Shown piece by piece: positions 1,990 to 43,122 of a stretch of DNA of 64,000 bases. Made by a program: the position numbers and the translations under genes. Below the pieces are notes generated by a model. That model was given only the letters and a program-made list of their open reading frames with translations, was not told the origin of the DNA and searched no databases. Origin of the DNA: Rozella allomycis CSF55. Taxonomy: Eukaryota. Location: assembly GCA_000442015.1 (NCBI GenBank), contig KE560523.1, forward strand, positions 1 through 64,000, in the 5' to 3' direction. Every line of letters begins with the position of its first letter. The stretch's first letter is position 1.

Positions 1990-4225
1990 TTAAAGTACAA
2001 GATGCCCAATTATTAATTCAATTATATTTTTGAATACCATTGCATTCCCTGATATCCGCCTAAATTTGATGCCGTGAATTTTAAGTAGCCAAACTTTGCA
2101 AATTTCAATTTCAAATACAACTTCCTGATTGACTCCAGAGACATATCGGCAATCAATAACGTAAGATGAATGATGGTTAAACATTAGGTTCTGCTGGGCC
2201 AAAATTTCTATCAATTGATTAATTAAATCATCGGGGGGCTTCACACTAGTCGTATTTGCGGAAAATGCGAATCTAACTGTACGAATCGGAGTTTGTCGAG
2301 GCACTTGAGTCGGAAAAGAAGGTGATATTTCAGGGCTGGGAATATCCGTCTCATAAACCACATTTGTGTTCACTTTTAATGAATCTCTTCTAGAACTATT
2401 GCTCTCTGACCTTGTTTCGAAGGATTTTCTTTGATAAGAATCTGAATTAGAGTTTGATTTTGGGCGCATTTTTGACGTCAGTGAAGCATTAGGTAATTGG
2501 CGCATAGGAGTTGTACCGAAATCTGCTTGAAATGTAAATCTTCGATTCCTTTGCATTGCTGGTTCTGGTGCTGCTAAAGTAAATCTGATATCTTTTTGTT
2601 CATTTGAAGACTTTCGACGAGCGTCAAGATTGTTGCCGCTTGCTAGCATAATGCCTTCCTTTTTATCTTCTAAACCAACATCAAAGTCCGAAGTTTCTGA
2701 CCTTGAACTAATGGTAGAAAATACACTTTGCTTTCTACCAGGAAGGTCAGTTGGCAGTAAGGAAGCTCGCCTGTCCATTGCTTTTATGGCATTCAATGAT
2801 TGCGTTATTGACTGTCTTCTATTTTGAATCATTCCCGGAGGTTGATTGAAGTTATAAATAACAACGTTATCAGACTCATGATTGATGCCTTGAATGCACC
2901 CACTGTATTTTTTATCCAAAGGAGTTTCATCTTCATTTAGAAACTTTGGTGGCAGACGTATCGGGGGGCCATTTTCATCTTTGATCACCCATGGATGATT
3001 TCTTAATTCCTCCATTTTAATTCTCTTTGAAGGATCCCTTACAAAAATTTTATTTAACAAATCAACAAACACTATTAATAACTGAAATGAGATATTACGT
3101 GGCGAAAGATTGTCAATTTTCCTATATTCGCATGATCTTATTTTTTTATATAACTCGCTCAAATTGTCGCCTTTGAAAGGGGCTTTCCCTGTCGCCATTA
3201 TGAACAAAACAACTCCGGAAGACCAAATGTCGCTTGGAGGACCAATATACTTTTCACCACTCACAATTTCAGGTGAAGCATAAAGCGGCGTACCACAAAA
3301 CTATATTAATAGTAACCGAAATTGTTACAGTCCCCAGTAAGTGATTTTTACCAATAAACGATCTACCGAGTCCAAAGTCTGATATTAATATATTATTGTC
3401 TTCAGTAAGCAACAAATTTTCCAGTTTTAAATCATCTTTAAATCGATATTATGTCTTACCTCGATGAACTACACCTGCTTCATGGCAATGGTCGATGGCT
3501 GAAATGATTTGTCGATACAATCGCCTGGAGTCTTTTTCAGTTAATGATTCTTTCGTGGTAATGTAGTCGATCAGCTCTCCACCTCCAGCATATTGCCTAA
3601 AAAATTCTAAAAAAGTTAGTACATTATAACGAACAATTCTGTCGGTGTATCAATTAATTGATAAAGTTTAACTATATTCGGATGATTTAATCTCATTAAT
3701 AACTTAACTTCTCCACTCAAATGCCTTAGGTACTCTGGGACGTAATTTGGATTTGTAATGGAGTATTTTGAATCATCTGCTTTTTTCGAAATAGAATTTA
3801 TCTCTTCAGTATTTGATATATTTTCGTTGGATTTTTTAATATCGCGTTCTTTTGTTTTCAACGTATTCGGTTCGGCTTGAGGTTCGGCTTCCTTCCCCGC
3901 CATATCCTTTACATCCTCTAGAGTATTCTCTTCTGGTATAACTGGCTCTTTTTTCCGGGAGACAACCTTGTCTTCAGAATGAACACTTTTTGAAAAATCA
4001 GATTTCACAGATTTGGAATCAATCTTTTGAGATTTCACGCTTTTATTTTCTGATGCTTCCATGTCAGCTTTCACGAGAACTTTTACAGCTACCTGAATGT
4101 TAAAAATGACCAATGTTCACCTTTTCATTTGTCACAATGTGATAACCAAGCTTTACTTTCGAAAAGGCGCCTTCGCCAATGGTACGACCTAGCTGATAAT
4201 CTCCGACAATTTTTCTCTTAAACAT
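1990..4225 (-). CDS. MARK/Par-1/Kin1-family Ser/Thr kinase with C-terminal KA1 domain
   Basis: GDYQLGRTIGEGAFSKVKLG, VAVK, HPNIVKL, HRD-LKLEN, DFG, FCGTPLYASPE, DIWSSGV; KA1 FEIEICKVWLLKIHGIKFRRISGN. Confidence 0.9.
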
Positions 4226-38164: not shown

Positions 38165-38230
38165 TCACGTGTATTTATTGAAAAAGGAAGCTAATTGAAA
38201 ATGACCGGGGTCACCCTTGTAGCTATAAAA
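38165..38230 (+). promoter_or_regulatory. Putative NTT promoter elements: CACGTG E-box, TGACC-GG-GGTCA palindrome, TATAAAA
   Basis: CACGTG 38165-38170, inverted repeat 38202-38213, TATAAAA 38224-38230 about 30 bp upstream of ATG 38261. Confidence 0.35.
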
Positions 38231-38260
38231 GCCTCCATTTTTTCTCAGCACCCCTGTCTG

Positions 38261-39994
38261 ATGTCTGCTATTGAAAAGTCTGCACCTGACGCTGTCAGGA
38301 AGCCAACCCTCAGAGAAAGGTTTTGGCCTATTGAAAGTCATGAACACAAGAAATTAGTTCCACTTATTTTGATGATGTTCTTGATCTGTTTTTCGTACAC
38401 TCTCTTGCGTGATTTGAAGGATGTTATGGTGTTGCAAATTGGAACATCCGAGTCTATTTCTTATATGAAGTTGGGAGGAGTATTGCCATCGTCTGTTATT
38501 TTTATGATGATTTTTACAAAGTTGTCTATCAAGAATACAAAGAAGTTTGTCTTTTACTCTATGTTATCTATCTTTATGGTTGTTTTCGGACTTATTTTGG
38601 TCTTGACCTTTTTTGGAGACCATGTTCACCCAGAACCAGGTTCTTTGACTAAAGGAGTTACTGGAGGATTATTGCCAGTGTTAGTTTTATTGGAAAAGTG
38701 GACTGTTGTTCCAATCTATATCTTTGCTGAAATGTACGGAACAGTTTGTTTGTCTTTGTTGTTTTGGGGATTTGCCAATGATATCTGTACTGTCAATGAA
38801 GCACGTAGATTTTATCCATTGATCAGTTTGTTTGCTAATGTTGCATTGGTTATTCTTATGTTTGTCATGGTTGGATTGAACGACTTTGTTAAGAACAGCA
38901 AGGATTTGTTTTGTCAAATTTCACTTGTCCTCGTCCTTGTCTTTGGTGCGATGGTTGCTTATATCTACAATTACATGCAAAAGAATGTTTTGACTGATCC
39001 AGTGTTGTACAACCCAGACTTGTTGAAGCCAAAGAAGAAGAAGGCTAAGATGGGAATGATTCAATCATTGAAGTTTGTTTTGTCTAGTGGATACGTTGCA
39101 AAGATTGCTGTTATTGTTGTTGCTTATGGTATGGTCATTAACTTTTTGGAAATCTACTACAAGAACGTTATCGGATTGTACTGGCTTGCTTCATTGGTTA
39201 CTGCTAAGGGTGTTGAATCTGGTCTTACTGGATTTATGGTTATTATTTTGTCTTTGAGCATTGGATCTACTGCTGTTAAGAGATTTGGATGGACCAAGAC
39301 TGCTTTGGTTACTCCTTTGATTATTGGAGGACTTGGAATTCCATTTTTGGGTATTGAATGGTACTACAAGCAACCTTTGATGGAAATGGGATCTCTCTTT
39401 GGTTCATTCAAGGGTGTTGATGGAAGAAAGTCAATCAGCGCTACCTACAAATTTATTAAAGACAAACCAGAAATTGTTAAAGAAATGATTGAATTGAAAT
39501 GGTTGACCGAAAGTGGTGAAAAGATTGACGGAATTAAATTCCCTGAAAAGAAACAACAAACTGAACAACAAAAGGAAACAATGAAGAAAATCGCTGATGT
39601 TATCGCTGATGAATTGACTGGACATGAAAGCTACAGCATTGTTACTCCAATTTACCTCTTTGGTTTCTTGGCTGTTGTCTTTGCTAAATCATTCAAATAC
39701 TCATTCTTTGATCCAACCAAGGAAATGGCTTACATTCCTTTAGATGATGAAGTTCGTGGTAAATCAAAGGCTGCTGTTGATGTCGTTGCTGCTCGTTTCG
39801 GTAAGTCCGGTGCTTCTGGTATCTTCGTTCTCTTCAACACTATCATCAATCCAAATTCATTGAACTATGTGTACATTATCCTTATTCTCTTTATCATTGT
39901 CTTTCTTTCCTGGATGTCCTCCACTGTTATGCTCGGTCGTGAGTTCAACAGACTCAACCAAAAGAAAAACGAAGTCCAAATGACTAAAGTTTAA
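38261..39994 (+). CDS. NTT: TLC/NTT family ATP/ADP nucleotide transporter
   Basis: Multi-TM protein with YTLLRDLKD, AEMYG..LSLLFWGFAND, EARRFYP, KYSFFDPTKEMAYIPLD, GKSKAAVDVVAARFGKSG; intronless. Confidence 0.96.
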   Translation: MSAIEKSAPDAVRKPTLRERFWPIESHEHKKLVPLILMMFLICFSYTLLRDLKDVMVLQIGTSESISYMKLGGVLPSSVIFMMIFTKLSIKNTKKFVFYSMLSIFMVVFGLILVLTFFGDHVHPEPGSLTKGVTGGLLPVLVLLEKWTVVPIYIFAEMYGTVCLSLLFWGFANDICTVNEARRFYPLISLFANVALVILMFVMVGLNDFVKNSKDLFCQISLVLVLVFGAMVAYIYNYMQKNVLTDPVLYNPDLLKPKKKKAKMGMIQSLKFVLSSGYVAKIAVIVVAYGMVINFLEIYYKNVIGLYWLASLVTAKGVESGLTGFMVIILSLSIGSTAVKRFGWTKTALVTPLIIGGLGIPFLGIEWYYKQPLMEMGSLFGSFKGVDGRKSISATYKFIKDKPEIVKEMIELKWLTESGEKIDGIKFPEKKQQTEQQKETMKKIADVIADELTGHESYSIVTPIYLFGFLAVVFAKSFKYSFFDPTKEMAYIPLDDEVRGKSKAAVDVVAARFGKSGASGIFVLFNTIINPNSLNYVYIILILFIIVFLSWMSSTVMLGREFNRLNQKKNEVQMTKV

Positions 39995-40020
39995 TTTAAA
40001 TTAATAAACTCATTTAAATC

Positions 40021-42176
40021 TTAAAAATCAAATATCTTTTTTATTCTTTCTACTACTTGCCTTTCTTTATCAGAGCAACAATCATTGAGTTTAATCCTCT
40101 CGCTACATGTCTCCAAGTTCACTTTCTTCGTCGCACTAAAAACTTCCCGCGCTTTTTCACATTCTTCTTTACTCACAACTTGGCCATTAAAAGTAGTCAA
40201 ATCAAACTCATTCAAAATAACCATCTTCAAAAAATTATTCTTTACAACTTCATTATGTTGACTGTTAATGATCATCTCTTCTACAGTTGATGGCACATTA
40301 TCCAAATACTTCATCTATCATATACTCCAATCATTTTTACTTGCACAAGCCTATCAAATAAATTAAACGAAAATTCTATTGTCTTTAGGCTGCTAAATCT
40401 TTCCAATTTTAGTCTATTGAAAACAGACAACTCCACATAACTAGCACCAATTCTTTTAACACTCTCAGATTCAAATGATACCAGCACATCATTAGTAACA
40501 TTGCCATATCTATTTGTAAGATAAACGCACTTTACAAGAACAATGAATCTCCTTGTTGATCCGCGTACCAAAACGAACTTGCATTTGTATCATCTTGTAT
40601 CCCCAGCATCTTTTTAAAAAACATCTCTCTAATCTTTTGCAGCATGGAATTCCTTAATTAATACTGCCATCAACTTACTTTTCATCTCTCCTTTGCATCT
40701 CTTTCTCTTTGGCTCTCTCCTTTAATATATCTCGTTTCGCCTCGCGTTCTGCTAACCTTCGCTCCTCCTCACTTACCTTTCTACTTTCCAACATTTTCAA
40801 ATGTTTCAATCCATAAATCACAAAGTTTTTATAGTTTGGCTCGTTTTTGCTTATCGGGTTGCCGTAGAGTGATAATTCTGTTCTTAATCAATGCGGGGGT
40901 TGTTTACCAATCAATCCATTCAACTTGAAGAGACCGAGTATATTCTTCATTTCGCTAATCTTGTTATCAGCCAATAATAGTCGTCTTAAACTAGGTAATC
41001 CAATACTTTGTTTGATTTCATTGATATGATTGTTCTTGAGATTTAAATCAACTAGAGTCGAACAAGGCGTAAATATTTGGAAATCTTGTATACAGTTACT
41101 CTCCAGGTTTAACACTTTCAAACTCGTCAAATTTTCTAATCCGCCTGGAATCACTCCTGGATACATTTACTTATATATTGGATGTTATTTCTTGCCAAAC
41201 ACACATTTTCTAAATGTGACATTCCTGTAATATCCATTCTCTCTATCAAATTATCTGAAAGGTGTAAAACTCGAATATACTTCATTCTGTTCAAATCACT
41301 AATGTCTTTTTCATTAAATTCACTGCATTTACATTAATCTTGTTGCACGAAGCATTTAAGTGTATTAAAAACATAAAAGAAGCAATGTTTTGTAAATCAA
41401 CAAGCTGGTTGTTTTTCACGAAAAGAGTCTTGATCTCATTGCTCGATTCAATCATGGGAATAGACATTAAAGTGAAATAGAATCTTTTACTTTAAGCTTT
41501 TGATTTGAGCAGTCTAGCTTGTCCGATACTTTGGGTAGAGCTTCGTACTTGGAAAAGGTAGTGAATGCGTCCTCGACAGGCATCTGTAAAGTGGCATCAG
41601 CAGTTTTACCTGTGGAAAAATCATCAATTTTTTAGTTTCAGTGATACTTGATTCTATAGTGTTAAAGGACGATGTAGATGAAGCGGACATGCATCTAGAA
41701 GGGCCACTACTTTTCTTTCTGCTAGTTTTGTCAAATGATGTTATTGGGCGATAATTTTCTTGACGGGTTCTATTTCGCACTTTTAGATAATCTTGATAGC
41801 TTGATGCAAATGTCAAAGATGTTTGTATTTGTTTAAATAATATGCCTTTTGACTTGCTCTTTTTTGGTTCTTTTTTCTTTTTCATATTAGCTTACCAGAA
41901 GCGATGCCGGTCCTTTCTCGTGACATTTCTGCTGGCTTGATGACACTCTTTGTCAACTGATCATCTTGATTACTGTCTTGTTTTTGTATCTTTTCAATAT
42001 GTCGTCAACACTACTTTTTTCTTTTTTTCGTTGATTCTTTTGGTACCATGATATTTTCTTACATTCAATAAGTAATCCAATGCTGAATCTACATTCCTTG
42101 TGTTCAATGTAGTAAAAATAGCTTTTTCGCCATCATCATTTAATATCAGATTTTCTCTTCTCTTATGTAAAGACAT
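40021..42176 (-). CDS. LRRC49: LRRC49-like leucine-rich-repeat protein (tubulin polyglutamylase/centriolar)
   Basis: LRRs (LKVLNLESNCI, LRRLLLADNKI), ELSLYGNPI..RKVSEEERR, GDSLFLYG and C-terminal NEVV..FNGQVVSKEE..AREVF resemble LRRC49; 5' extent uncertain. Confidence 0.7.
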
Positions 42177-42219
42177 AGCAGACAATGTTTACAATTATCA
42201 AATTTCATAATAGCCTAAC

Positions 42220-43122
42220 ATGGTCGTCAATATTAGAACTTGCATTTCAAAGTTTAATTTAATTAATTTTAAGCGATGCTATATGACTCCAGTGGTCATT
42301 GACAATGTTGTAACATAGCAGTTTGCATCAATTCACACAGGCTGGTATCGAACGGCATTTTGATATATATTCACGCTTATTAGCNGTAACTTAATTAAAT
42401 TTAAGCGATGTTATATGACTCCAGTGGTCATTGACAATGTGGTAATTTAGTAGTTTACATCAATTTACACAGGCTGGTATCGAACGGCATTTTGATATAT
42501 ATTCACGCTTATTAGCAGATAGAATTGTTCTAATGTTTGGTCCCGTAATAATTAATTCTAAAGAAAACAAGGTCGATACACATTTGGCAAGAACAGTCAC
42601 TGCGCAGTTACTTTTTCTAGAGTCTCAAGGCAAAGACAAACCCATTCAGATTTATATAAACAGCCCTGGAGGTTCGGTTTCTGATGGTTTAGCGATTTAT
42701 GATACAATGCAAGTAAAGAATGTCCAACTTCATCAAAAGTATATCAAATGCCCAATTAGCACTGTTTGTATGGGTATGGCTGCATCCATGGGATCTTTTC
42801 TTCTTGCATCAGGAAGAAAAGGAATGAGATATGCTTTGCCAAATTCTAGAGTCATGGTTCATCAACCTTCTGGTGGAGCGCAGGTATTGATTTTATCGAT
42901 CCTTAAAAGGGACAAGCAAGTGACATTGCCATTGTAGCTAAAGAAATTTTGCAAACAAGAGAAAGATTAAATAAAATATATTCTTTCCATACCGGTCAAG
43001 AAGTTTCAGAAATTGAAAAAGTTATGGAAAGGGATACTTGGATGAATGCCGAAGAAGCTAAAAAGTTTGGAATCGTAGATCATGTAATAATCAAAAATGA
43101 AACTGATACTCCAAAGAATTAA
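42220..43122 (+). CDS. CLPP: Mitochondrial ClpP protease
   Basis: Presequence-like N-terminus, [34 protein letters not shown]; 5' part duplicated across N42385. Confidence 0.95.

Follow-up and report, generated by a model that had tools for sequence, protein, structure and literature searches.

The window analysed here is a stretch of 64,000 nucleotides (nt) from Rozella allomycis CSF55 (GenBank assembly GCA_000442015.1, contig KE560523.1, positions 1 to 64,000 of the forward strand). Its minus strand carries a gene related to LRRC49 with 11 short introns, the fifth of which begins with GT and ends with TG. An earlier reading, made from the sequence of the window alone (hereafter the sequence-only reading), had proposed this intron as one that the gene requires and had suggested that its 3′ splice site is set by distance and tolerates TG. 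Our analysis of the gene, its homologues and a larger part of the genome argues that intron 5 is a real and probably functional feature. The gene and the elements around intron 5 are:

40021..42176, minus strand: LRRC49-like gene, 12 exons, 621 amino acids, no internal stop; putative start codon at 42176
41465..41490, minus strand: intron 5 of 11, 26 nt, GT...TG, phase 0; best junction against 38 homologues; letters unchanged in sequencing run X6
41465..41466, minus strand: TG 3′ splice site, within an ATG
41468, minus strand: A at +23 from the donor, putative branch adenosine
41442..41443, minus strand: first AG 3′ of the TG, 23 nt on (49-nt intron); stop at residue 196
41435..41436, minus strand: nearest in-frame AG (56-nt intron); costs 10 residues of the first leucine-rich repeat

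Intron 5 (minus strand, 41490-41465) reads GTAAAAGATTCTATTTCACTTTAATG and starts with GTAAAAGA. Its donor, GTAA, follows the consensus of the organism, and its TG end departs from the terminal AG of major (U2-type) introns. The letters confirm what the sequence-only reading gave as the sequence, position, flanks and 26-nt length (GT...ATG) of the intron. When the intron is retained, the gene model stops at residue 202, and when the next downstream AG is used (49-nt intron) it stops at residue 196, as had been predicted in both cases. Two AGs further on are in frame, one giving a 56-nt intron and the other, at 41429, a 62-nt intron, and both leave an open protein.

We compared the possible junctions by homology. 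A search with the public model of the gene listed 150 proteins, 81 of which match the present model at an E-value of 1e-15; those covering the repeat block, 38 in number, were built into an alignment profile that excludes Rozella sequences (one of these 38 members looks like an unrelated repeat protein). Scored against this profile were 21 in-frame intron lengths from the donor at 41490 and five other donor-acceptor pairs. The 26-nt TG junction scores best with 229.7 bits, against 223.4 bits for 23 nt, 221.8 bits for 29 nt, and 196.7 and 197.1 bits for the AG-ending introns of 56 and 62 nt, respectively. GC-AG and upstream GT-AG alternatives from donors at 41518, 41548 and 41497 fall 17-36 bits below the TG junction and were discarded. 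No gap occurs at the TG junction in any of the 38 alignment rows, in agreement with the earlier claim that this junction restores the register of the leucine-rich repeats. The stronger statement that the TG intron is required has its support in homology, which clearly favors TG (229.7 versus 196.7 bits), and not in the reading frame alone, the in-frame AGs at 56 and 62 nt having been missed. The full-length protein with an intact first leucine-rich repeat appears, on sequence comparison, to be the likely product of the TG junction, although splicing at TG may be less efficient than at AG.

The protein itself had rightly been recognized as LRRC49-like: among seven homologues whose names we looked up, two are called LRRC49, one outer dynein arm light chain and one hypothetical, and three are nameless. 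Its N-terminal SDS22-like repeat block is in register with the LRRC49 homologues, and the gap-free alignment over the first repeats is common to the Rozella protein and its relatives, although the former is divergent (about 23-35% identity). The public models, O9G_001542 and one member of a second annotation (P0001/P0006), hold only the 3′ half, each with 288 residues. Both start at an ATG at 41166, which lies inside intron 7 of the present gene model, and they are named hypothetical or U2A′. O9G_001542 came up in a protein search with a single exon; another such search, with exon 6 as query, returned no candidate.

The geometry of intron 5 is that of the genome. A simple self-trained gene model with a minimum intron of 20 nt was applied to 874 kb, comprising the window and other stretches (about 7% of 11.86 Mb). 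Only 3 of its 1110 predicted introns are shorter than 26 nt, and lengths of 26, 27, 28, 29 and 30 nt account for 265, 291, 241, 160 and 52 introns, respectively. In the window, the distance from GTAA to AG peaks at 26 (71 occurrences versus about 21-39 at distances of 18-25 and 30-40). The donors are GTA(A), with A at +3 in 98% and A at +4 in 74% of the 265 predicted 26-nt introns. An A occupies +23 in 88, 74, 68, 74 and 67% of the 26-, 27-, 28-, 29- and 30-nt introns and in about 35% elsewhere, and this position is not encoded in the gene model for the longer length classes. Intron 5 carries both the typical GTAA donor and the +23 A. AGs that end at +24 and +25 are often skipped (in 25 and 7 of the 291 27-nt introns, respectively), and those that end at +26 are skipped in 1/241 28-nt, 1/160 29-nt and 2/52 30-nt introns. 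A case of this floor is found in the LRRC49-like gene, where intron 8 (40878-40907, minus strand) passes over an AG ending at +25 and uses the one at +30. The 26-nt floor, the skipped AGs at +24 and +25 and the A at +23 together support the proposal that the 3′ splice site is set by distance. Predicted introns longer than 40 nt cluster near 55 and 100-120 nt, some with a +23 A, and many of these long introns may be mis-joined pairs of short ones.

TG recurs as a predicted acceptor. In a competing run without any preference for TG, a flat penalty was charged for any non-AG end, non-GT start, frameshift or stop read-through, which yielded 1232 canonical, 26 non-AG, 16 non-GT, 9 frameshift and 1 stop calls. 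We removed four non-AG calls with an N within 150 nt and tallied TG by hand in the remaining 22. A TG stands at a frame-compatible end between +26 and +30 in 14 of these 22. TG occupies 15/37 compatible versus 4/73 incompatible positions, or 14/35 versus 4/70 when intron 5 is left out (Fisher p about 3e-5, calculated by hand on positions that are not fully independent). The +23 A is present in 14 of 15 TG cases, one of which ends at +31. There is no CG and one weak GG among the 22 ends called, and TG dominates the non-AG calls even though AG>TG is a transversion. Most of the 16 non-GT calls are close to an N or to the edge of a locus, and no donor class is common to them. We estimate from these calls that at least about 1% of introns (14 of about 1250) end in TG, a lower bound because the penalty was stiff. 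Raw donor-to-TG distances in the window do not peak at any value, nor would a class of about 1% be expected to produce a peak.

Three further TG junctions are fixed by homology. The one in the window is:

3433..3459, minus strand: GT-TG intron, 27 nt, phase 1, in the HRDLK catalytic loop of a MARK/AMPK-like kinase; homology from both sides

The codon split by this intron corresponds, from both exons, to Asp-129 of 8txy_A and Asp-134 of 4ynz_A, the aspartate of HRDLK, and use of the AG at +24 would add an extra Asp. The muskelin TG junction is fixed at residues 236|237 of 8ttq_A, and in ING both exons place the codon that is split by the junction at profile position 32. Together with the genome survey, these junctions suggest that splicing in this organism tolerates TG, as the sequence-only reading had supposed. 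A Pfam run on 13 further TG candidates gave register for ING alone; matches to enoyl-CoA hydratase, Sec1/Sly1, SNF2-type helicase, biotin ligase and F-BAR/PH do not fix it. The last of these stand beside two TG-ending candidates on the plus strand, L104:7819-7845 and L104:9273-9301, which are about 1.4 kb apart and possibly belong to one gene.

A U2 small nuclear RNA with the usual GUAGUA, the canonical branch-pairing motif, is present, as are the genes for Slu7 and Prp18. U2AF35 is present, lies near the fission-yeast protein and looks ordinary (20 zf-CCCH matches, two loci inspected); a U2AF65-like gene matches its family below the cut-off. A divergent, full-length candidate for a U12-like RNA at L089:4863-4995 (G000:C861:364863-364995) scores 36.4 bits against an Rfam cut-off of 53 and may mean that a remnant minor spliceosome exists. 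Minor (U12-type) introns have the 5′ consensus RTATCCTT and the branch motif TCCTTAAC. Intron 5 has neither, and a minor-spliceosome identity was rejected on its 5′ sequence.

We propose the following mechanism. The 5′ GTA(A) would be the main signal, and the branch adenosine would lie about 23 nt from the 5′ end, presumably because the spliceosome cannot fold a shorter lariat. In the second step, the first acceptable dinucleotide ending 3-8 nt past the branch A would be used, with AG strongly preferred and TG docked where this short window holds no AG. TG would retain the last G, which pairs with the first G of the intron in a model discussed in PMC10711555, as far as the text cited goes.

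We assessed whether the TG is a true letter of the genome by comparing four (X1, X3, X6 and X7) of fifteen listed runs over 39900-42380, X6 being from another sample and study. No run on the list is recorded as RNA, which says nothing for or against expression, and the four compared contain no splice joints. X6 covers 39900-42091 in a single contig with 10 differences. None of them, and no gap, falls within 41465-41490, which answers the earlier suggestion that an A might have been missed. X7 does not cover intron 5. For X1 and X3, contigs are listed up to 41428 and again from 41485, and the leftover depth is uniform over 41399-41514 (422.1/422.1 and 295.2/295.3, respectively), which points to an unresolved heterozygous bubble:

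41399..41514, no strand: heterozygous bubble around intron 5 in X1 and X3; outer variants probably at 41429 and 41484

The assembly (TG) allele would account for at least 63% of the depth in X1 and X3, a figure derived by adding up the records on the premise that their rows are ranked by share, as they appear to be. Three near-equal depths at 42319 (124.9, 112.6 and 120.3) and 1:2 allele ratios at the bubbles 40159-40321 and 40449-40611 suggest that three haplotypes are present, in which case TG would be on at least two of the three. X1 may be the source of the assembly. The region is present in one copy in Rozella's own genome, and a search of metagenome contigs with a 26-nt flank gave no matches.

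Intron 6 of the same gene is polymorphic at its acceptor. A T>C change at 41307 (plus strand) separates an AA from an AG end, and 26 nt is again the best-scoring length against the homologue profile. With the AA allele, the next AG lies one base on and leads to a stop at residue 243. The simplest reading of AA is that of a damaged allele carried by one haplotype, but AA may instead be accepted there at +26 as the intron end. At two other loci, G000:C861:492544-492519 and G000:C861:198397-198370 (both minus strand), the model likewise cuts one base before an AG; these are perhaps further polymorphic acceptors. The LRRC49-like gene otherwise looks to be under selection, since introns, with 290 of its 2156 nt, hold 14 of the 30 listed variants, and among the 16 exonic variants 11 are silent and none is a stop.

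Taken together, our results favor, with a probability of roughly three in four, an ordinary major-spliceosome intron of the Rozella 26-30-nt class in which TG is the only productive 3′ splice site. Several points weigh against this assignment. Self-training of the gene model makes its length spectrum self-reinforcing, and the 38 homologues were selected with the TG model as query. An in-frame AG at 56 nt exists. The letters of the minor haplotype at 41465-41467 lie outside the variants listed, and four unlisted A>T changes could include an AG allele. Damaged splice alleles seem to segregate in this very gene, as in intron 6. In eight of the 22 clean non-AG calls, an in-frame TG between +26 and +30 is missing; one of the eight has a TG at +31, another has a compatible AG, and in two an AG is displaced by one base, as in intron 6. 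Homology has fixed only 3 of the 14 other TG cases, and most of the 13 candidates submitted to Pfam gave a one-sided family or none. Human TG acceptors, in the account cited from PMC2374985, never serve as the sole site. Finally, a lost fidelity factor was considered as the cause of TG tolerance and found no support: U2AF35, Prp18 and Slu7 are all present, and no missing factor explains the tolerance.

The alternative that survives best, though we regard it as doubtful, is the one proposed for human TG-AG tandems, in which the first step needs a nearby AG although TG is what is ligated; the mRNA would be the same. All four homology-checked cases have an AG within 28 nt of the TG (+23 in LRRC49, -3 in the kinase, +7 in muskelin and +11 in ING), distances that respect the human limit of 28 nt quoted in PMC2374985, and an ordinary-looking U2AF35 is present. 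However, with AG at the end of about 5-6% of positions, chance alone would place one within 28 nt. The near AG is no working alternative in three of the four cases, where it would introduce a stop, change the frame or break a motif, and the +23 A is tied to the donor rather than to an AG.

It is unlikely that TG is a splice-site mutation yielding little or no correct mRNA, masked by another haplotype or carried in a decaying gene. The three haplotype depths at 42319 and the 1:2 bubbles are compatible with masking, intron 6 AA is probably such an allele, the minor allele across intron 5 may be AG, and the second public model deviates at five residues of the C-terminal half. Yet TG appears to hold the majority of the depth, and under mutation load TG should be no commoner than AA ends, GG ends or broken GT donors, whereas it dominates. 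TG introns also occur in the kinase catalytic loop, in muskelin and in ING, whose frames are open apart from them, and the exonic variants of the LRRC49-like gene are mostly silent.

We consider it slightly less probable still that splicing from the donor at 41490 uses the AG at 41435 or 41429, which would remove 10-12 residues of the first repeat from LRRC49. Both introns are in frame with open proteins, and predicted introns longer than 45 nt do occur (48 of 1110, about 4%). But 33 bits are lost, the deleted residues align without a gap in 38/38 homologues, and the stretch that would be skipped retains the conserved P-x-x-E pattern of the family. In the kinase TG intron, moreover, the canonical alternative breaks HRDLK.

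We know of no activity that edits U to A. A dropped or miscalled A, or pre-mRNA editing to AG, is very improbable: the assembly is a haplotype mosaic with N-joined allele copies and editing to AG is mentioned for GT-AA sites in PMC7072748, but X6 agrees letter for letter and without a gap, which largely refutes a DNA error, and an extra A would give 27 nt and shift the frame.

The remaining introns of the LRRC49-like gene were placed as follows; ten of the 11 are 26 nt long and the remaining one is 30 nt.

42062-42037, 41973-41948 and 41895-41870, minus strand: introns 1-3, each 26 nt GT-AG, placed by frame and the self-trained model with little homology
41584..41609, minus strand: intron 4, 26 nt GT-AG, three listed variants within
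41307..41332, minus strand: intron 6, 26 nt; AA in the assembly and X6, AG in X1 and X3
41170-41145, 40907-40878 (30 nt), 40678-40653, 40535-40510 and 40340-40315, minus strand: introns 7-11, all GT-AG

An intronless TLC ATP/ADP transporter gene (PF03219) adjoins the LRRC49-like gene at 38195-39994 on the plus strand. On its other side, two allele copies stand in tandem around an N at 42385 (42260-42520). This was checked at that N; the window has 12 single Ns, and tandem allele copies around such Ns mimic frameshifts and odd introns.

Beyond the single gene, we lean slightly toward a general statement: the major spliceosome of R. allomycis would measure the distance from the 5′ splice site to position the branch point, and TG would routinely serve as the sole, constitutive acceptor of 1% or more of introns, amounting to hundreds across the genome, in essential genes as well, while U2AF35, Prp18 and Slu7 are retained. 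If this is true, Rozella offers a natural test of how far splicing can do without the 3′ AG once the branch point is set by the geometry of the intron, which has up to now been addressed in mutants (yeast lacking Prp18) and at rare alternative human sites, and the published rule that TG never serves alone would be broken. It would also explain broken public gene models, both of which lose the 5′ half of LRRC49, and broken models bear on claims of gene loss for a lineage placed next to microsporidia in the account given in PMC8476143. Intron 5 by itself is one more case of a class and not a new machine; tiny introns with a fixed A and rare TG acceptors are each already known elsewhere. Our literature searches brought up nothing on intron geometry or TG acceptors of Rozella, although supplements and subscription papers might hold such data, and the name Rozella is absent from the main text of PMC7072748 and PMC10639083.

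Human U2-type TG acceptors, as described in the cited text of Szafranski et al. 2007 (PMC2374985), amount to about 0.02% of acceptors and are always an alternative to a working AG, never alone; GNAS and TSPYL2 are examples (PMC4176328). They share with the Rozella sites the GT donor, TG in place of AG, the major spliceosome and an AG within 28 nt. In intron 5, a TG likewise follows a GT donor and an AG lies 23 nt downstream of it, no more than chance would lead one to expect. In Rozella, however, TG appears to be the sole productive acceptor, in introns of 26-31 nt and at a rate of about 1% or more. For intron 5, the AG 23 nt beyond the TG would lead to a stop and the AG 30 nt beyond would delete 10 conserved residues.

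Saccharomyces cerevisiae lacking Prp18 uses BG and HAU 3′ splice sites, so that UG ends are usable by the spliceosome (PMC10711555, in the part cited). There too, branch-proximal acceptors ending in UG (AUG, UUG, CUG) are docked by the major spliceosome. In yeast this is an error state of a mutant that competes with the annotated AG, whereas Rozella has a Prp18 gene, and the TG product seems to be necessary to it.

Stentor coeruleus (PMC9505925) and myxobolid myxozoans and Dicyema (PMC13644364) are described as having ultra-short introns whose branch A stands at a fixed position. A near-fixed length, a GTA donor, little signal beyond one A and the canonical branch-pairing motif of U2 are common to these organisms and Rozella, and in myxozoans the distance from the A to the AG grows with intron length, as in Rozella. 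In Stentor, the A is fixed relative to the 3′ end in two length classes (10th of 15 and 11th of 16). The cited texts describe GT-AG ends in all three and note no TG class.

The tunicate Fritillaria borealis, in which 95% of introns are non-canonical and read by divergent U2AF paralogues according to the text cited (PMC13326754), offers a natural major spliceosome that accepts non-AG ends, as Rozella seems to do. In Rozella, about 99% of introns are instead GT-AG, and one ordinary-looking U2AF35 was found.
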